Shown: positions 11,246 to 48,179, numbered from the stretch's first letter. The stretch is 49,122 nt of DNA from a bacterium (GCA_023246095.1 JAHFJA010000006.1:1-49122), one strand, 5' to 3'. Numbers and translations: made by a program. The notes: generated by a model not told the origin, from the letters alone.

Positions 11246-11943
11246 ATGGAAGCTAACCAACAAAATCATACTGGTGAAATTTGTTTTTTGTATCAGAGGG
11301 ATTTTTTGAGCGCAAGTGAGATTGCCGAGAAATTATCTTTGTCAATTGATGCGGTGTATTATTGTTTGAGAAAAAATAAGATACCACGACGGACAACAAC
11401 AGAACAGAATATAATGAGATTCGAAAAGACACCATCTACCTTCCTATTAATGAGCATCTAAGCGATATTGATAGAGGGTTGTTAATTGCAGGTATTATTA
11501 TGTATTGGTGTGAGGGATCCAAGAGAGGAGATGGAAAGACGGTTGACTTCGCAAACAGCGACCCGACTCTAATTATATTGTTTCTTAAGTTTTTACGATC
11601 ATTGCTCCATGTACAAGAGAAGAAACTACGATGCTATCTGTATTGTTTTGCAAATCAAGATACTGACAACCTTATTGATTATTGGTCAAGCTTAATTGAA
11701 ATCAGGAAAGATCAATTTACCAAGCCGTATGTTCGAGGTGTCTATAATCCAAGTAAAGAGGGAAGAATGCCCTATGGTTTACTACATATAAGATATGCTG
11801 ACAAGAAACTCTTGTCTTTTATCAAAAATTACATTAATATACTCCCATGTGAGTTAATAAGAAATATGGGCGGTTACCGAAGTGGTCAACCGGGGCAGAC
11901 TGTCAGTAAAGGCAGCTTTATTGAGCAATCAATATCGAATTAA
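11246..11943 (+). pseudogene. Frameshifted HTH + LAGLIDADG-like endonuclease gene overlapping tRNA-Tyr
   Basis: 11246-11461 encodes an HTH (LSASEIAEKLSLSIDAVYYCLRK). A second frame, open from 11380, encodes AGIIMYWCEGSK...VDFANSDPTLIILFLKFLR. One extra base near 11441-11446 would join them (...TPSTF-x-INEHLSDIDRGLLIAG). Could be an assembly error. Confidence 0.6.
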
Positions 11944-12192
11944 TTGGGTGAATTCGGGGAAATCTTCATCTCAATCTTTGGGAAAAGACAATCCCGAGCC
12001 AAGCTAGGAAGGACATAGGTTTCCTAGACGGTGTAGAGACTAGTGAGTGAGTTCCAACAATACTCTCACAAACAGCGCCCAACCCCGCTTCAAATAGCGG
12101 GTGATGATATAGTCCGTGCTCCTAGAAATAGGGGAATTACATGAAATCTGCTGGCATCGCCTTCGAAGGTTCGAATCCTTCACCGCCCACCA
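11868..12192 (+). tRNA. tRNA-Tyr(GTA) split by a group I intron; exons 11868-11903 and 12144-12192
   Basis: Joining the exons gives acceptor stem GGGCGGT/ACCGCCC plus ACCA, anticodon arm GCAGA-CTGT|AAA-TCTGC, a long variable arm and T arm GAAGG-TTCGAAT-CCTTC. Confidence 0.95.
11904..12143 (+). ncRNA. Group I intron (240 nt, no ORF, IA-like)
   Basis: P1 CUGU|C pairs with GGCAG, with U.G at the splice site. P3 UUGGGUG/CGCCCAA, P4 UUCGGG/CCCGAG, P7 GACUA/UAGUC, an extra hairpin between P7 and P3', P8 CCCGCU/AGCGGG, P9 GAAA tetraloop, terminal G at 12143. Confidence 0.93.
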
Positions 12193-12234: not shown

Positions 12235-12306
12235 GCCACTTTAGCTCAGTGGTAGAGCAACACTTTTGTAAAGTGAAGGTCCTGGGTTCGAATCCCAGAA
12301 GTGGCT
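12235..12306 (+). tRNA. tRNA-Thr(TGT)
   Basis: Acceptor stem GCCACTT/AAGTGGC, loop TTTGTAA, T arm CTGGG-TTCGAAT-CCCAG. CCA not encoded. Confidence 0.95.
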
Positions 12307-12603: not shown

Positions 12604-13416
12604 CTAAAGGGGGCTTCTTATGTTTTTTAGTATAGGGTTGGTTACTTTTGTGTATAGTTGGGTTGTTCTGATATTGGCGTGCCCCAGAAGCTCTTGTACG
12701 TATCGTACATCGACACCATTTTCCAAGAGGTGAGTAGCAAAGCTATGGCGCAAAGAATGAAATGTTGCTTCTTTTTGAATATTGGCTTTTTTCAGTGCAT
12801 GTTCAAATACTTTTTGCGCGGTTCTTTCGGTGAGTCGACCGCCACATTCGCTTGAAAATACATACTCGTCGAGCTGTTTATGCGAAATCTGATCAATTAT
12901 GACGGGGATTAATTTCTCAGGAAATACGGTAATGCGATCTTTATTGCCTTTTGCACCTTTAACGTGAATTGTCAGCTCGGAAAGATTGATATCCTTTACC
13001 TTCATCGCTGTTACTTCGCTAACGCGCAAACCTCCGGCGTAGGCAAGCGCAATCATTGTTTTGTGTTTTGTGTTAGGGATGACTCGTAGAATGGATTGAA
13101 TTTCATCGCGAGATAAGAAGATAGGGAGTTTACTGGGTGTCTTGGCAAACCGAATATCAAGCTTACTATTAAACTTGAGCACATTCCGACAGAAAAAATT
13201 TATCGCTTGAAGCTTTTGATTAACGCTTTGCGAGGCCATTCCTTGGTCTATTTTGGATAGTAAGTATTGCTTGATGAAGTCGATATCAACAGAATCGAGG
13301 TTACTTTGTTTGGAAGTTAAATATTCAGCCACACAGGCGGAATAGCTTTTGATTGTTTTGGGACTGTAATTACGCAGTCTTAGCTCATTTTCGAGCTTTG
13401 ATAAATAGACATTCAT
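12604..13416 (-). CDS. Tyrosine recombinase (IntI/XerD-like, SAM-like N-terminus, no IntI insertion), 270 aa
   Basis: LRLRNYSPKTIKSY N-terminus. Catalytic residues intact: GLRVSE, KGNKDR, HSLRHSFATHLLE, LLGH, TTQLY. Ends SPL like IntI proteins. Confidence 0.93.
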   Translation of the reverse strand: MNVYLSKLENELRLRNYSPKTIKSYSACVAEYLTSKQSNLDSVDIDFIKQYLLSKIDQGMASQSVNQKLQAINFFCRNVLKFNSKLDIRFAKTPSKLPIFLSRDEIQSILRVIPNTKHKTMIALAYAGGLRVSEVTAMKVKDINLSELTIHVKGAKGNKDRITVFPEKLIPVIIDQISHKQLDEYVFSSECGGRLTERTAQKVFEHALKKANIQKEATFHSLRHSFATHLLENGVDVRYVQELLGHANIRTTQLYTKVTNPILKNIRSPL

Positions 13417-13450
13417 GTATTTATGTATTACTCTTAACCTAAGAGAAATT

Positions 13451-13520
13451 ATACGAAATATTCGGGTAGTATACAATATCTCGTATGCTATATGTAAACA
13501 CTTCGGATATGGAAGAGTTA
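13451..13520. other. Candidate attI-like primary site
   Basis: ACTTCGGATATGGAAGAGTTA (13500-13520) matches only the right half of the downstream sites. It is preceded by hairpin ATACGAAATATT/AATATCTCGTAT. Confidence 0.45.
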
Positions 13521-13565
13521 TATGAAATGCCAAAAGGAAATAAGGTATTTGGCACATCATCTAAC
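13517..13565. repeat. Empty cassette: GTTA...TAAC inverted arms with a 13-nt loop
   Basis: GTTATATGAAATGCCAAA / TTTGGCACATCATCTAAC, 15 of 18 pairs. Confidence 0.7.
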
Positions 13566-14035
13566 ACGGGATATCCGACTCACAAGCACTCAGAATAAAA
13601 TTATTTTTTCAAATTCATATGAAGAAAGACAATCTAAACAGCAACCCAGAGTTATCGTGGACATTTCTTGATGGAAGTAAGAGAACAGCTGGAATTCTTG
13701 AAACTGTTGTCATTGGTAAAGGAGAATATTTGCCAGGGTGGAAATGGTCAACACACGCTGGTGTAATAACAGGCAAAGAATCAGAACGGCATGTTGGCTA
13801 TGTGCTTTCAGGTGAAATGATAATCAAAAATTCTAATGGTGATGAGATTATGGTTGGTCCTGGAGAAGCCTTCGAGGCAGACCCTGGACATGATGCGTGG
13901 GTTGTTGGAAACGTCCCTTGTGTTGCTTTGGATTTTACAGATTTAGGATTGAAAAAATAATTTTATTCTGAATGCCTGTTCATCCAAATTTGTCTTCGCT
14001 ACACTACGACAAACTTCGGATATCCTGATACGTTA
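13562..14035. repeat. attC-like site 1, carrying the cupin gene inside its loop
   Basis: TAAC-A-CGGGATATCCGA (13562-13578) ... TCGGATATCCTG-ATAC-GTTA (14016-14035). Inner 31-bp inverted repeat at 13582-13612/13949-13979. Confidence 0.75.
13619..13960 (+). CDS. Cupin-domain protein
   Basis: PGWKWSTH, HVGYVLSG and PGHDAWVVG motifs. Confidence 0.88.
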   Translation: MKKDNLNSNPELSWTFLDGSKRTAGILETVVIGKGEYLPGWKWSTHAGVITGKESERHVGYVLSGEMIIKNSNGDEIMVGPGEAFEADPGHDAWVVGNVPCVALDFTDLGLKK

Positions 14036-14204
14036 TACGCAATTCAAAAAATATTTTTCTAACGGAGAATAAGGAATGATAGGCTTTTAAAAGGAAATAA
14101 ATTTGTTTTTCTTTATTTATCGAGGGGGATAATTTGTGTTTCCCTCCACTTCGTTACAGAAAACGAATTATTTATAAATATTAATTATTAAAGATACTAG
14201 TATG
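14035..14204 (+). repeat. Cassette leader copy 1 (homologous to 15785-15957)
   Basis: Shared blocks ATACGCAATT.AAAAAATATTTTTCT, GATAGG, TAAATTTG.TTTT and CTTCG.TACA.AAA.GAAT.ATTT, up to the ATG. Confidence 0.8.
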
Positions 14205-14795
14205 AGAAAAATAACCGTTCTAACAATGATTACATTGGATGGAGTCATGCAAGCACCTGGCGGATCCAAAGAGGATACCGCAGAGGGTTTTAAATATGGC
14301 GGCTGGTCTACGCCGTATATGGATGAAGCGTATGGTAAAGTTGCAGCAGAAGAAATGAAACCAGCAGAATATCTTTTGGGCAGAACAACATTTGAGATTT
14401 TTGCCAGATACTGGCCAGAACATGAAAATGGATGGCCAGGTATCAATAATGGTACGAAATATGTCTTGAGTGGGACTATGAAAAATTCAGATTGGAAAAA
14501 TACCGTTTTTCTCACAAGTCTGGCTGATATCGAAAAGTTAAAAAATTCAGAAGGTCCCGACATACAAGTATGGGGCAGCAGTAAACTCGTTCAACTGTTG
14601 CTTAAGAATGATTTAGTGGACGAACTTCGACTCAAAATTCACCCATTGACAATTGGCGAAGGAAAAAAATTGTTTGGCGATGGCACGATTCCGGCAGCAT
14701 TTGCCTTAATAGAGAGTTCGGTTACACCAAGCGGTGTGATTATTGCCCATTACAAACGAGCTGGAGAAGTCAAGACTGGCACCGTTGGAGATTAA
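14202..14795 (+). CDS. Dihydrofolate reductase-like / RibD C-terminal domain protein
   Basis: TLDGVMQAPG, LLGRTT, GSSKLVQLLL..DLVDE and GEGKKLF motifs. Confidence 0.9.
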   Translation: MRKITVLTMITLDGVMQAPGGSKEDTAEGFKYGGWSTPYMDEAYGKVAAEEMKPAEYLLGRTTFEIFARYWPEHENGWPGINNGTKYVLSGTMKNSDWKNTVFLTSLADIEKLKNSEGPDIQVWGSSKLVQLLLKNDLVDELRLKIHPLTIGEGKKLFGDGTIPAAFALIESSVTPSGVIIAHYKRAGEVKTGTVGD

Positions 14796-14821
14796 AGAGA
14801 AAAGAATTTGACGCAAAAAAA

Positions 14822-14882
14822 TTGAAAAATGAAATTCACCCCTGACCCCTCTTTCATTTTTCAAAACGGAAAAAACAAATTT
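14822..14882 (+). repeat. Cassette trailer copy 1 (homologous to 17150-17210)
   Basis: TTGAAAAATGAAATTCACCCCT.ACC.CTCTTTC.T.TTTCAAA..GGAAAAAA, containing a 13-bp hairpin. Confidence 0.85.
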
Positions 14883-14938
14883 CATACAAATACAAAGAAA
14901 AGTATGGATTACAAAGTCACGGAAAAGTATACTACATA

Positions 14939-15026
14939 TAACAAAGGATATGAGGTTACGAAGCCTTACGACTTCTCCACTCAAATTGCTCCCTATATTC
15001 GCAACTTCTCATATCCTTAAACGTTA
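14939..15026. repeat. attC-like site 2 (88 bp)
   Basis: TAAC-A-AAGGATATGAG-GTTACGAA ... TTCGCAAC-TT-CTCATATCCTT-AAAC-GTTA. Confidence 0.8.
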
Positions 15027-15103
15027 TCGGAAATAGCAAAAATCTTTCCTTATAGTTTAATATTTTGGATTTTTTTTATTTTGAATGCAAAAATTTTAAA
15101 AAT

Positions 15104-15715
15104 ATGGGCAACGAAATAGTAAGCGCGTTCGTACTGGGTCTAATAGGCGGTGTGATTCCCGGCCCAGTTTTGGCGGCCACATTCACGGAAATTTTACAGT
15201 CTGGCATGTTAAAAAGCATGCGGATAATTCTATGGGCAATGTTGACCGAAACCGTTGTTGCCCTAATAAGTTTATTGGCACTATCATCGATGAATTTTTC
15301 TGAGAGCTTTTTCCAGGGTCTTTCGGTAGTCGGGGCCGCCATCCTAATTTGGATTTCGACTTCGATTTGGAAAGTCCACAAAATCGACACCGAAGAAAAA
15401 GTCCATTTCAGTCTGGGTAAAATTTCGGCGATGATTCTGGCTAATGGTGTGCTGTGGACTTTCTGGATCACCGTGTGTGTGCCGAAAGCGATTATGTTGA
15501 ATAATAAGGCGGCTTTCGGCAATTACTTGTTCTTGCTACTCGTCGAAATCGGATGGCTCATTTCCACTGTTCTGGTTGCAGTGATATTTTCAAGATTCAG
15601 AAAAATTCTTTCCAACCCAAAAGTCGTGCCAATTATTTTTAAAATTTTTGCTCTTGTATTCGTGTATTTCGCTGTCGATATGGTTTATAGAAGTATCAGG
15701 TTTTTCCTGACCTAA
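15104..15715 (+). CDS. LysE/RhtB-family exporter
   Basis: GLIGGVIPGP motif and multiple TM helices. Enclosed by ~60-bp inverted arms 15023-15083/15716-15777. Confidence 0.8.
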   Translation: MGNEIVSAFVLGLIGGVIPGPVLAATFTEILQSGMLKSMRIILWAMLTETVVALISLLALSSMNFSESFFQGLSVVGAAILIWISTSIWKVHKIDTEEKVHFSLGKISAMILANGVLWTFWITVCVPKAIMLNNKAAFGNYLFLLLVEIGWLISTVLVAVIFSRFRKILSNPKVVPIIFKIFALVFVYFAVDMVYRSIRFFLT

Positions 15716-15784
15716 CAAGATAAAAAAATTCCAAAATCAATAGTAAGGAAGAAAGATTTTTTGCTACATCAGATAACACGCTAT

Positions 15785-15957
15785 ATACGCAATTTAAAAA
15801 ATATTTTTCTTAAGGTAAAATGAAGATAGGGTTTCAAAATATGGATAAATTTGATTTTTTCTTTTATTGTAAATGGGAATAATATTGTATTTTCTTCTGC
15901 TTCGCTACAAAAATGAATCATTTTATGAACTTTTAATTGTTAAGGGATATTATTATG
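15785..15957 (+). repeat. Cassette leader copy 2, fused to a collapsed site at 15774-15790
   Basis: TAAC-A-CGCTAT runs directly into ATACGCAATT. The hairpin body and GTT are missing. Confidence 0.75.
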
Positions 15958-16854
15958 GAAAACAATATGCAAAAAATAACGCCAAACCTATGGTTTTACG
16001 GAAACGCTAAAGAAGCCGCGGATTTTTATACCTCTGTTTTTTCCGATGCCAAAATCGTCGCAACTTCGCACTATCCAAAGAGTAAAGAAGAGGGGCTCGC
16101 CGACTTCCAGCTAAATATGGCCAGTAAAGTATTGACGGTTGACTTCGACGTTATGGATTTTCGTTTCGTGGCTATCAATGCAGGACCTGAGTTTACTCCT
16201 AATCCTTCTATATCATTCTTTATCACACTGGATTCCAAAGAAGAAATTGACGAGTTGTGGGGAAAGCTTGGAGATGGCGGAAAAGAATTGATGCCGCTCT
16301 CAAAGTATCCATTTAGCGAGTACTACGGCTGGTTGCAAGATAAGTACAATGTGAGCTGGCAGCTTATTTTGAACAATCCCGAGGGCGACCAGCGACCGAA
16401 AGTGATGCCTTCATTTCTCTTTACGCAAGACAAAAGTGGAAAAGCAAAGGAAGCAAGAGATTTCTATCTCTCAGTTTTCAAGGATTCAAAAGAAGGTATT
16501 ACCGCGCTTTTCGAAGAAGATGCCCAAGTTGGTCAAAAGAAGGGAGACGTAATGTTTTCTGATTTCATGCTTGAAAATGTGTGGCTGGCTGCCATGGATG
16601 GTGGAAACCCACACGAATTTACCTTCAATGAAGGAGTATCACTTTCGATTAGTTGCAAAGACCAAGACGAAATTGACTATTACTGGGAGAAGCTCACAGC
16701 GGACGGCGGTGAGGAAAGTGTTTGTGGCTGGCTCAAAGACAAATATGGCGTAATTTGGCAAGTCGTGCCTGCGAATATGGAAGAGCTTATGAAGCGGTCG
16801 AATGCATTCAAAATCATGATGCAGCAAAAGAAAATAATTATTGCCGAGTATTAA
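15955..16854 (+). CDS. Two-domain VOC/PhnB-like (3-demethylubiquinone-9 methyltransferase family) protein
   Basis: KITPNLWF..AKEAADFY, YGWLQDKYNVSWQL and CGWLKDKYGVIWQV motifs. Confidence 0.9.
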   Translation: MENNMQKITPNLWFYGNAKEAADFYTSVFSDAKIVATSHYPKSKEEGLADFQLNMASKVLTVDFDVMDFRFVAINAGPEFTPNPSISFFITLDSKEEIDELWGKLGDGGKELMPLSKYPFSEYYGWLQDKYNVSWQLILNNPEGDQRPKVMPSFLFTQDKSGKAKEARDFYLSVFKDSKEGITALFEEDAQVGQKKGDVMFSDFMLENVWLAAMDGGNPHEFTFNEGVSLSISCKDQDEIDYYWEKLTADGGEESVCGWLKDKYGVIWQVVPANMEELMKRSNAFKIMMQQKKIIIAEY

Positions 16855-16857
16855 GAA

Positions 16858-17145
16858 ATGAGCCATATGAATGAAAAGGAAATTGCAACCGGCTTTGTTC
16901 ACAAAGTACCTGCTGATTTAAAGGAAATCTTAACTTCTAATCCTGATGTGATCGAAAGATGGAACAAGTTAACTCCTGTTGCACGCAACGAGTGGATATG
17001 TTGGGTTACGATTGTCAAAAAACCAGAAACAAGAAAAGAGCATCTTGTTCGTTTGCAAGAAGATATTCTTATAGGGAAAAAGAGGCCATGTTGTTGGCCT
17101 GGTTGTCCTCATCGCAGAGAAAGTGCGAAAAAATGGTTTAAATAA
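16858..17145 (+). CDS. YdeI/OmpD-associated domain protein
   Basis: VPADL, WNKLTPVARNEWICWV..KKPETR and RPCCWPGCPHR motifs. Confidence 0.85.
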   Translation: MSHMNEKEIATGFVHKVPADLKEILTSNPDVIERWNKLTPVARNEWICWVTIVKKPETRKEHLVRLQEDILIGKKRPCCWPGCPHRRESAKKWFK

Positions 17146-17149
17146 GAAT

Positions 17150-17274
17150 TTGAAAAATGAAATTCACCCCTAACCTCTCTTTCGTGTTTCAAATAGGAAA
17201 AAATCAAATATATTATTAACGAGGAAAGCCTATCTGATAAACGAAATAGAAAATATTTTGATGAAATCACGTAT
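17150..17274 (+). repeat. Cassette trailer copy 2, truncated inside the expected TAAC core
   Basis: Homologous to 14822-14882 and complementary to leader 2 in several blocks. Ends AATCACGTAT followed by CATG. Confidence 0.75.
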
Positions 17275-17275
17275 C

Positions 17276-17968
17276 ATGGGAAATAACAAACTAATTCAAC
17301 TGAAAGATTCTCTTGTGGGCGCATTGTCAAAGCATGGATCCGTTGAGGAGATTGCTCTTTTTGGCTCGCTGGTTAAAGGCGATGTTGATCAGTATTCTGA
17401 TATAGATATGATTGTGGCCATCTCTTCACCGATAAACGGATTAGAGGCATTGGGACACTTTGGAGAGGTACGGTATTATCGATCGTTTAGTAGCGTAAAA
17501 TTTCCTTCAGGACGGTACTGGATGAAGGGTTACTCCGTATTCAATAAAATTGATATAAGTTTTCATACCCTTGATGAGTTTGAGAAAATTGTACTTCATG
17601 GTGATCCTGAAGGATATACAACACCGCCGTTCAATATTGAGTGGAAAGCAAATCGGGTCACCAGTGCAAAGTCCATCTCGACAAACATTGATATGGCGAG
17701 TCCATATATATTTTCCGAAGCAGAGGACAAGATAGGCAAGCTTGTGTATCGTTTGTCTCGTTCGCTTAAGTCTGTATATAGAAACGAATCCCCAGAACAT
17801 GATCCCCATGACGTTTATTCAGAATTGAGCTCATTATGGGCTATTCATTCAAACTCAAAGTGGGTTGGTGGTGCCTTGGATAGTCTTGTGACAGAAATAT
17901 TGTCTTTGGGTTCTGAGAGTGATACTGTAGTGTTACATAATGTGACGCCACTAAACAAATATGAATGA
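17276..17968 (+). CDS. Nucleotidyltransferase-domain protein (Pol-beta/MNT-like)
   Basis: LFGSLVKG..DQYSDID (GS...DxD) motif. Confidence 0.82.
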   Translation: MGNNKLIQLKDSLVGALSKHGSVEEIALFGSLVKGDVDQYSDIDMIVAISSPINGLEALGHFGEVRYYRSFSSVKFPSGRYWMKGYSVFNKIDISFHTLDEFEKIVLHGDPEGYTTPPFNIEWKANRVTSAKSISTNIDMASPYIFSEAEDKIGKLVYRLSRSLKSVYRNESPEHDPHDVYSELSSLWAIHSNSKWVGGALDSLVTEILSLGSESDTVVLHNVTPLNKYE

Positions 17969-18215
17969 AATAAAACGCAAATGGGATTTACTCCCAAAAA
18001 CAAAAAGACAGTCTTGTATTGACGAAATCGTTACTTTCTTCAAACAAAAACGAGACGAGGAAATTGGCATAATTGCAGCGGAAGATATTTTAGATTTTTT
18101 CTTGCAAGATATCGGAACAGACATATATAATAAAGGCATAGAAGATTCAAAAGAACTGCTAAAAAAACAGTTTGAGAATTTGGAAATAGATCTAGATCTT
18201 TTACTGAATAAATAG
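17961..18215 (+). CDS. DUF2164-family small protein
   Basis: FFKQKRDEEIGIIAAEDILDFF...IYNKGIED pattern. Confidence 0.8.
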   Translation: MNEIKRKWDLLPKTKRQSCIDEIVTFFKQKRDEEIGIIAAEDILDFFLQDIGTDIYNKGIEDSKELLKKQFENLEIDLDLLLNK

Positions 18216-47624: not shown

Positions 47625-48179
47625 ATACATTTACATTACGAGGTAAACCTATAAGCCGAATTCTGTCATACCCCCAAAGGGGCGGGGTGACCATCTCTCT
47701 TGCGATACTGTTGCCAGTACCGTCATGCGAGTGTTTATACTCTTGCACCTGGTAGGTGTTTGCCAAGCTGTTGTATCACTACAACACTGGTGCGCTCTTA
47801 CCTCGCTTACGCAAGTCAGCCATTCAAAAGGCTTCCGCACCTTTTCATCCTTACCTGTGCCCCGAAAGGCGTAGGCGGTATTTTATCAAAACATTTCTGA
47901 TTCGACCCCTCTTTTCGGGAGGGCTTTTCTGTTGCTCCGGTAGTTTTGAGGCCACCGAAACCAGTCTGAGACTGATACTATCCCGTGACTTGGTCATAGT
48001 ATCAAACGATCGAGTTGGGGTTTAATCCCCTTCTCTATCATAAAAGATTCTATGATTGCTTCAGGCCGTCGTTAACGGCTACCTCTTCCTTGGTTATACA
48101 CCAAGGGGTGTTCGGACTTTCCTCTATGACACTTGCGCGCCACAGCGATCACCCAGCTTACCTCGTAATGTCAATGTAT
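47625..48179 (-). ncRNA. rnpB: RNase P RNA, enlarged
   Basis: Minus strand contains GAGGAAAGUCCGAAC, GCAACAGAAAA, GGUAAGAGCGCACC and ACAGAAUUCGGCUUAU. P1 helix is extended to ~25 bp. Confidence 0.96.

Follow-up and report, generated by a model that had tools for sequence, protein, structure and literature searches.

Introduction

How gene cassettes are created is a question with a gap at its centre, as we know of no mechanism for the joining of an open reading frame (ORF) to an attC recombination site. The question is raised by a 49,122-nucleotide stretch of DNA (GCA_023246095.1 JAHFJA010000006.1:1-49122; contig C39, here called the window, with positions counted from its first letter) that belongs to the 985,568-base, 94.8% complete genome of an ultra-small groundwater bacterium. 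In the window, an integron-like array of four cassettes adjoins a tyrosine recombinase gene, and two of these cassettes, A and B, carry different cargo between a non-coding leader and a non-coding trailer that they have in common; an earlier note, made from the sequence alone, had read this pair as a reusable scaffold into which ORFs are swapped and had proposed that leader and trailer pair with compensatory changes. Here we ask what the scaffold is, how far it is spread, and whether such pairing accounts for it. The descriptive part of our answer, namely the anatomy and boundaries of the scaffold, the inverted relation of leader to trailer, the spread, and the diversity of the cargo, is close to certain. 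As to its meaning, we lean towards a widespread family of integron-type cassettes in which trailer, attC, and leader make up a single conserved palindrome whose leader may supply a promoter.

Results

Leader A (14032-14204) and leader B (15784-15957) are 76% identical over ~171 nucleotides (nt; BLAST, E 2.2e-21), with 91% identity in the first 32 nt, and the trailers are 86-87% identical over 60-65 nt (14816-14875 against 17144-17203; E 9.9e-16), which bears out the earlier claim that both elements are shared. Homology between A and B reaches the ATG and resumes 21 nt past the stop codon in A and at the stop codon in B, in keeping with that claim, while trailer B turned out to be longer than supposed, extending over 17146-17275. 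BLAST and profile searches of the whole genome recovered two copies only of the leader (at 14032 and 15784) and two of the trailer (at 14822 and 17148).

Leader A opens with an R' box and an A/T palindrome (14032-14059), continues through the blocks GATAGGCTTT (14078-14087), ATAAATTTG (14097-14105), and GAGGGGGA (14122-14129), and closes with a 3' hairpin that has a conserved loop (14136-14164); in leader B the R' box has decayed, with TA/TATAC in place of G/TTATAC (slash, crossover point). The leader hairpin comprises six base pairs (bp; stem GTTTTC/GAAAAC) with modest compensation, and its loop, TCCGCTNCGCTNC, is also central in attC sites. The consensus fold of 51 leaders is a single 6-bp helix (-2.26 kcal/mol), and the leader, having neither extended RNA structure nor an Rfam match, does not classify as a structured cis-regulatory RNA; the Rfam search of leader and trailer returned nothing at the gathering score or at E up to 1 apart from a chance-level microRNA match to the trailer. 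A leader peptide was rejected by eye, since one-base indels break the frame and the GTG varies.

Trailer A consists of a hairpin (arms 14822-14834 and 14852-14864), an inverted block (14871-14882), and a diverged remainder that, on alignment, probably continues to the R'' box at 14936-14942. Trailer B contains the hairpin (17148-17194), the inverted block (17197-17213), GAAAGCCTATC (17224-17234), an inverted A/T block (17248-17261), and an R''-like end (17268-17275), and in this full-length form it recurs downstream of leaders in other genomes. The hairpin has a stem of 16-17 bp, the sequence of which varies among cassettes yet stays paired, and an almost invariant C-rich loop of 17-21 nt. Changes on both sides were found in 15 of the 17 pairs, 89.3% of cells are paired against 68.4% when shuffled (0/500), and the covariation score of 0.461 drops to 0.243 at most once the partner is slid; covariation inside the trailer hairpin is genuine, and the hairpin is under selection. 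The trailer is present downstream in 19 of 49 evaluable leader-bearing cassettes, its hairpin starting -25 to +20 nt from the stop codon in 11 and the trailer lying further downstream in 8 more. A small ORF beginning in trailer A (14829-15020) was rejected, as it has no Pfam match and its ATG is gone in trailers with other stems.

The cassette boundaries are those of an integron. The attC profile matches the genome only at 13970-14038 (a right half) and at 14931-15027, where cassette A ends in a complete site with the inverted symmetry R''-L''...L'-R' (14931-15029; R'' ATATAAC, L'', a variable centre, L', and R' GTTATCG). No other site in the window is complete: the LysE site is without its left half and cassette B is without a site. 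Leader homology drawn from differing contexts starts at G/TTATAC, a boundary at G/TT, and the core GTTATAC differs from GTTRRRY at one position. In all cases read, the sequence upstream of the leader is either the L'-R' end of a ~95-100-nt attC-like site or a short palindrome beside a divergent recombinase.

An exact leader 22-mer, matched against a species-level genome collection, yielded at least 120 stretches, of which 80 were fetched; together with two viral contigs carrying the 22-mer, the viral matches being two, they make up a set of 82 loci. An attC-profile match ends at the leader in 27 of these and a divergent recombinase homologue lies within 900 nt in 10, while 40 are unclassified by strict criteria (many having an L'-like motif by eye) and 5 are too short. 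The leader thus stood at an attC or a recombinase at every locus that the strict criteria could classify (37/82), and its independent occurrence as a regulon promoter, a possibility raised in the earlier note, was not seen. Leader and cargo share a strand throughout, with the leader upstream, and an ORF of at least 60 amino acids starts 90-400 nt after the leader start at 67 of the 82 loci.

The leader and trailer are related to one another as inverted repeats. Both of the inverted pairs to which the earlier note had drawn attention exist, at 14099-14110/14871-14882 (12 nt, 100% complementary) and 15845-15861/17197-17213 (17 nt, 94% complementary). By itself the 12-nt pair is at chance level, because three further perfect 12-nt inverted pairs of no evident meaning occur in the same 3.7 kb, and it is meaningful only because it belongs to a longer leader-trailer inverted homology. 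Leader B is identical to the reverse complement of trailer B at 62 of 92 positions (E 2e-6), and a profile of 11 trailers matches leaders on the opposite strand in 83 of 127 leader instances (all collected loci, some overlapping) and on the same strand in 0. Four blocks are common to 20 leaders and 20 reversed trailers, namely TTCAAAAAATATTTTTC (the A/T palindrome), GATAGGCTTT, ATAAATTTG(A)TTTTT, and AGAGGGG, the third being the pairing first noticed. Full-length trailers end in an inverted R' box, which is the R'' of the next attC, and in a copy of cassette A from metagenome run X4, leader bases 14032-14059 recur inverted with zero differences ~38 nt past 14882. Judged from these alignments, the trailer is a partial leader copy in opposite orientation, and within the resulting inverted repeat of ~100 nt the 12-13-nt "pairing" is the block that has been kept best. 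When folded as single-stranded DNA, the bottom strand of a natural contiguous trailer-attC-leader (L121:855-1235) is predicted to form a single hairpin in which the arms pair on either side of attC, at -58.6 kcal/mol against -35.4 +/- 4.5 for shuffled sequences (z -5.2; 0/100 shuffles as good).

The further proposal that leader and trailer co-vary as an RNA pairing found no support. Over 20 cassettes possessing both elements, mean identity of the leader to its own reversed trailer was 0.599 and to other trailers 0.595 (permutation p 0.26), and the own trailer of cassette A ranked 20th of 20 by identity. A one-base GA/G variant is concordant in 14 of the 20, five of the six discordant cassettes having a G-type leader and a GA-type trailer (Fisher one-sided p 0.07), an association that is overstated even at this value because the cassettes are related. 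Leader-leader identity (75-89%) and trailer-trailer identity (80-87%) are far above the likeness of a leader to its own trailer, from which it follows that each arm is conserved in its own right. The two hairpins contain 13 G-T cells and 22 A-C cells, small numbers that give no top-strand bias, so that folding of the mRNA strand alone is not favoured. The "compensatory" pair probably reflects the repeat variant carried by each cassette rather than a selected RNA contact; the repeat reaches into sequence that lies ahead of every plausible site of transcription initiation.

The scaffold is widely but patchily distributed. When leader A was used as BLAST query, 29 of 101 relatives gave a match at E <= 0.01, identity reaching 89% over 147 nt in a different family. 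Within the class, 50 of 401 genomes matched at E <= 1e-6; of the 12 genomes of its own family, just one did. The 22-mer matches listed include, by record name, many candidate-phyla lineages, Woesearchaeota, ANME-1, Methanosarcinales, Ignavibacteria, Methylomirabilis, and a 2.09-Mb Chitinophagaceae contig, and the record names of some third-party bins are unreliable, one "Gammaproteobacteria" locus being a genome that another collection assigns to the window's own class. Five leader-bearing genomes of 1.2-5.8 Mb have one or two leader copies each.

Listing the enclosed ORFs, a check that the earlier note had suggested, upheld the picture of one scaffold with many cargoes: 47 of the 67 ORFs have a Pfam match (E <= 1e-5), distributed over 38 different best families. 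These include restriction-modification methylases, GmrSD, Fic, a TIR protein, a Cap4-type nuclease, and LexA, as well as peroxiredoxin, carbamoyltransferase, a PEP-utilising enzyme, permeases, radical SAM enzymes, OmdA, and RibD_C. The RibD_C protein behind the leader of locus L144 has 72% amino-acid identity to cargo A of the window. On that 2.09-Mb contig of a 5.8-Mb genome, a DDE transposase gene precedes the leader and its RibD_C, a second RibD_C and a VOC gene follow, and no attC-like site was seen upstream of the leader; the locus suggests transfer between ultra-small bacteria and Bacteroidota-type genomes. A candidate empty scaffold with almost no cargo was found once among all collected loci (L080).

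Cassette A itself recurs in two other metagenomes, running exactly from 14031/14032 to 14872/14882 at ~97% identity (24-26 differences from the window) behind unrelated sequence, and its presence in these other contexts speaks for movement as a unit, while it bears only indirectly on excision and insertion by a recombinase. One metagenome contig has a leader, 907 nt of other cargo, and a trailer. A contig from the source sample (run X1) joins the end of a VOC-like gene (window 16854) to a RibD_C-like start (14201) with 31 other letters between them, and is probably from another organism with VOC and RibD_C cargo as neighbours.

The window recombinase scores 215.2 bits against NCBIfam XerA_Arch, just under the cut-off of 220, and 201.7 bits, in two stretches, against integrase_gron (TIGR02249; cut-off 265). 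Its alignment to XerA (5hxy) is unbroken. In the alignment to the integron integrase IntI4 (2a3v), 15 query residues stand where the chain has 58, and the enzyme therefore does not possess the IntI-specific extra domain expected of an integron integrase. As a second, ordinary Xer-like recombinase gene is present on contig C23 of the same genome, the window enzyme is an extra recombinase tied to the array. Homologues beside other leaders align over 262-302 amino acids with no long insertion, and relatives have a short palindrome beside the recombinase at the place matching the half-site at 13561-13579. An Xer-like clade without the IntI extra domain, 38-60% identical to the window enzyme, divergent, and leader-adjacent, heads attC-type arrays at loci L154, L057, L092, L110, L130, L136, L011, L090, L152, L143, L053, L066, L155/L050, and L098. 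Since the sites and boundaries of the window array are of the integron kind and its recombinase is without the IntI-specific domain, we do not count it among canonical integrons.

The order of the array to the right of the recombinase, all on the + strand, is cupin, RibD_C, LysE, VOC + OmdA/YdeI, and nucleotidyltransferase ORFs (Table 1). The arms of the cupin inverted repeat (13582-13612 and 13949-13979) are 94% complementary, adjoin the ORF start, and overlap the stop, and the half-sites at 13561-13579 and 14014-14038 have GGATATCC in common; it looks as if the cupin ORF were placed in the loop of an attI-like site beside the recombinase. The LysE cassette contains inverted repeats at 15023-15051/15749-15777 (29 nt, 76%) and 15062-15083/15716-15737 (22 nt, 91%). 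With the LysE and cupin flanks being inverted repeats as well, all four array cassettes bracket their ORFs with inverted repeats. Among cassettes without this leader, 10 of 32 were above the 99th percentile of mismatched controls for ORF-flanking inverted repeats, in a test that is confounded because the flanks take in attC sites of the neighbours, and these are palindromes that resemble one another throughout an array.

A nucleotidyltransferase ORF with a weak MntA-like match starts at 17276, immediately past the end of trailer B, with a DUF2164 ORF (17961-18215) downstream of it; the attC profile search found no attC between trailer B and the nucleotidyltransferase ORF. Elsewhere in the window, a group I intron (Rfam RF00028, 68.2 bits) at 11893-12135 lies between, or overlaps, a 154-amino-acid ORF without a Pfam match (11479-11943) and a tRNA-Thr gene (12235-12306), and the class A RNase P RNA (47636-48164) carries insertions, with 529 nt against a 367-position model.

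Table 1 Coordinates of the recombinase gene, recombination sites, and cassette components in the window
Feature	Position	Strand	Basis
Tyrosine recombinase, 318 amino acids, Xer-like	12604..13560	-	Pfam Phage_integrase 1.1e-43
Half-site at recombinase start, R''-L''-like, partner of 14014-14038	13561..13579	+	Sequence reading
Cupin ORF (13619-13960) inside 31-nt inverted repeat	13582..13979	+	Pfam Cupin_2
attC-like right half (L'-R'), crossover G/TTATAC at 14032	13970..14038	+	Profile positions 61-128, E 2.3e-9
Leader A	14032..14201	+	BLAST and alignments
Cargo A, RibD_C (DHFR-like) protein	14202..14795	+	Pfam RibD_C 1.3e-18
Trailer A	14816..14942	+	Alignments; extent past 14882 is our reading
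Complete attC-like site, cassette A	14931..15029	+	Profile E 1.9e-11; aligned with 17 attC of relatives
LysE cassette (ORF 15105-15715), without the leader family	15023..15783	+	Pfam LysE
Leader B	15784..15954	+	BLAST and alignments
Cargo B1, VOC protein, two 3-dmu-9_3-mt domains	15955..16854	+	Pfam; ORF caller start TTG 15937
Cargo B2, OmdA/YdeI	16858..17145	+	Pfam
Trailer B	17146..17275	+	Profile and alignments

Discussion

In the reading we favour, the trailer, attC, and leader would constitute a single non-coding unit of ~350-400 nt, contiguous in the circle formed on excision or wherever two such cassettes follow one another, where it would form a long imperfect palindrome with attC at its tip. 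In an array, this unit would be cut at the crossover G/TTATAC, so that the leader comes to lie 5' of the cargo and the trailer and attC 3' of it. Leader and trailer would be the outer inverted-repeat arms, ~60% complementary over ~100 nt with four well-kept blocks, and could lengthen or steady the folded attC or hold binding sites for the Xer-like recombinase. The cargo-facing arm may provide a promoter and a 5' untranslated region (UTR), in which case a cassette would be expressed wherever it was inserted, and the trailer hairpin may end or insulate the transcript. A role at the level of DNA rather than mRNA seems indicated by the position of the best-kept block upstream of any plausible start, by the lack of top-strand bias, and by the absence of an Rfam family. 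A promoter-like TTGACA-18-TAAATT (10 of 12 matches) is present in the leaders of many relatives, and the window copies are weaker.

The promoter-like blocks have also been interrupted or replaced at some loci. Small G+C-rich palindromes of the type CCTGCC..GGCAGG split the leaders of L076, L077, L082, L088, and L081 between these blocks and occur in the trailer hairpins of L070 and L080, and they may be a separate tiny mobile repeat. At L117, on a 548-kb contig, there is a third leader type in which a CAACC..GGTTG hairpin replaces the -35-like block; a LexA gene lies downstream, and the leader adjoins a putative tRNA gene (read by eye) and recA.

Several observations weigh against our reading. 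On the side of the promoter, a promoter scan was silent at the homologous place in both window leaders, promoter-like sites are not enriched (12 against 11.2 expected in the window and 6 against 5.9 at L155), and the spacing of the promoter-like blocks varies from ~15 to 19 nt among leaders. The one metatranscriptome from the same sample yielded no contig on the stretch, which speaks neither for nor against expression. As regards the palindrome, the arms are only ~60% complementary, the common trailer type has a spacer of ~45-55 nt between trailer and R'', and in 30 of the 49 evaluable cassettes the trailer is either absent or escaped detection, for which reason the arms cannot be essential. 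The recombinase is without the domain by which a canonical IntI reads folded attC. The trailer hairpin, with its A/U-rich stem, 17-nt loop, and a following A-rich tract in place of a U tract, is not a canonical intrinsic terminator, and the terminator scan was silent. Part of the near-invariance seen at leader bases 6-27 in alignment A3 is built in, because the loci were retrieved with that exact 22-mer.

An mRNA panhandle, in which base pairing of leader and trailer stabilises or regulates the transcript and is kept by compensatory change, was suggested by the two window pairs, both perfect or nearly so with a matching one-base indel, and it would also draw on the 14 of 20 concordant GA/G variants and on the complementarity of the leader's AGAGGGG to CCCCUCU in the trailer loop. 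We consider it improbable, given that own pairs fared no better than others, that the concordance is inflated by kinship, that the blocks are kept in sequence beyond mere complementarity with no excess of G-U over A-C mismatches, and that the repeat spans the -35-like, -10-like, and A/T blocks, which an RNA would exclude. The same blocks invite the idea that the arms, on the folded bottom-strand circle, rebuild a double-stranded promoter for transcription of the cargo or priming of the complementary strand, in the manner of the Frpo and sso elements of plasmids. In the predicted fold the A/T tract and the -35-like and -10-like blocks are paired and the spacers unpaired, and the geometry would suit, with the bottom strand as cargo template and the base of the stem facing the cargo, yet the promoter reading is itself weak and many cassettes have no trailer, and we would give this modelled role little credence.

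The leader might instead be the remnant of an ORF-less promoter cassette with a decayed attC, fused to its cargo, the trailer being a second decayed element and the scaffold a by-product of fusion. The resemblance of the leader's 3' hairpin, in stem and loop, to the central hairpin of attC sites and the separate occurrence of modules (leader bases 1-29, 1-79, and 68-146 are each found alone) are in line with this, and fused and ORF-less promoter cassettes have been published, as far as the consulted parts of those papers go (10.1101/427781, PMC4670013, PMC3001079). We regard fusion as unlikely, in that the same event would have been needed independently for dozens of cargoes, the trailer with its conserved hairpin begins at the stop codon whatever the cargo, and fusion gives no account of why leader and trailer mirror each other. 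A non-autonomous transposon resembling a miniature inverted-repeat transposable element (MITE), with long terminal inverted repeats, passenger genes, and a preference for attC as target, would explain the ~100-nt inverted ends around the cargo, the near-empty copy at L080, and the leader beside a DDE transposase gene in the 5.8-Mb genome of L144. It appears far-fetched: the left end is a tyrosine-recombinase crossover and the right end of the full-length trailer form is R'', no target duplication was noticed, although not by a systematic test, and no cognate transposase accompanies the element, the one transposase nearby being that of a neighbouring insertion sequence in L144; the associated enzyme is a tyrosine recombinase.

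A bolder version of the integron-type reading, which we rate as a long shot taken as a whole, would make the trailer-attC-leader unit a universal, host-independent "cassette vector" run by an Xer-like recombinase that predates the IntI-specific domain. Its promoter, formed on the single-stranded circle, would express the cargo or prime second-strand synthesis after excision or uptake, and the empty unit, with the leader running directly into the trailer as in L080, would serve as a landing pad that captures new ORFs. If this were true, the empty unit would be the long-sought intermediate of cassette genesis.

What can be said without that extension is that dozens of unrelated genes, ranging from restriction and defence to metabolic enzymes, are surrounded by a single non-coding backbone several hundred bases long, which is kept at 75-90% identity in many ultra-small bacterial lineages and, by record name, in other phyla and archaea. 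The backbone is a concrete object for work on cassette genesis, on cassette-autonomous expression, and on the folding of recombination sites, may help to show how cassettes are built, and points to an array-forming recombinase without the domain thought to define integron integrases; it should be of interest for integron research and for the study of gene flow among ultra-small microbes.

Comparison with known systems

Integron cassettes are, in the textbook account, promoterless units with a short 5' UTR, expressed from a platform promoter, Pc. The cassettes described here have instead a conserved ~150-nt leader and an inverted trailer. Promoter-like motifs are present inside the cassette leader of relatives, none being called in the window copies. 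The window array resembles integrons, including archaeal integrons in so far as the consulted part of PMC9668308 covers them, in its single direction beside a divergent tyrosine recombinase, its R''-L''...L'-R' sites, its G/TT boundary, and its diverse cargo, often defence-related or of unknown function, whereas the integrase of those systems carries an extra domain that the window recombinase is without. The same part of that paper (Ghaly et al. 2022) reports archaeal integrases with the extra domain and a semi-conserved attI across archaeal phyla, and the attI shown in its fig. S2 may overlap the start of the leader described here. In the literature searched there was no description of the leader motif, nor of integrons in these bacteria, with the possible exception of the PMC9668308 supplement, which may show part of it.

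Promoters lying within the variable part of an integron rather than at Pc, and cassettes fused by loss of attC, are found in the parts consulted of 10.1101/427781, PMC4670013, and PMC3001079; no conserved leader before dozens of cargoes and no inverted 3' copy is described in those parts. An imperfect hairpin of single-stranded DNA that makes -35-like and -10-like elements double-stranded is likewise known from Frpo (PMC9849209, consulted part). In the cassettes, by contrast, it is a recombination site that lies between the arms, and any comparable role is predicted from folding. Frpo-type promoters belong to plasmid leading regions and are active after conjugation.

Genes placed between inverted sites or repeats are also familiar from the pdif modules of Acinetobacter plasmids, with their Xer-type recombinases, and from Correia-type MITEs, with their promoter-bearing repeats. 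As in pdif modules, genes in the window are bracketed by inverted sites or repeats in the company of an Xer-type enzyme, but the recombination sites belong to the attC kind, and 28-bp sites alternating between XerC and XerD types were not seen; the likeness to Correia-type MITEs lies in repeats with promoter elements, while no transposase was found here and no target duplication noticed. A further parallel is offered by the lineage-specific repeats of sedentary chromosomal integrons of the Vibrio cholerae type, which consist of attC only, lie 3' of the ORF, and are those of one lineage. They too are near-identical non-coding repeats accompanied by many unrelated ORFs, and they pose the same question of genesis. 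In the cassettes described here, however, the conserved unit extends ~100-150 nt on both sides of attC and therefore brackets the ORF, and it occurs, by record name, in many phyla.

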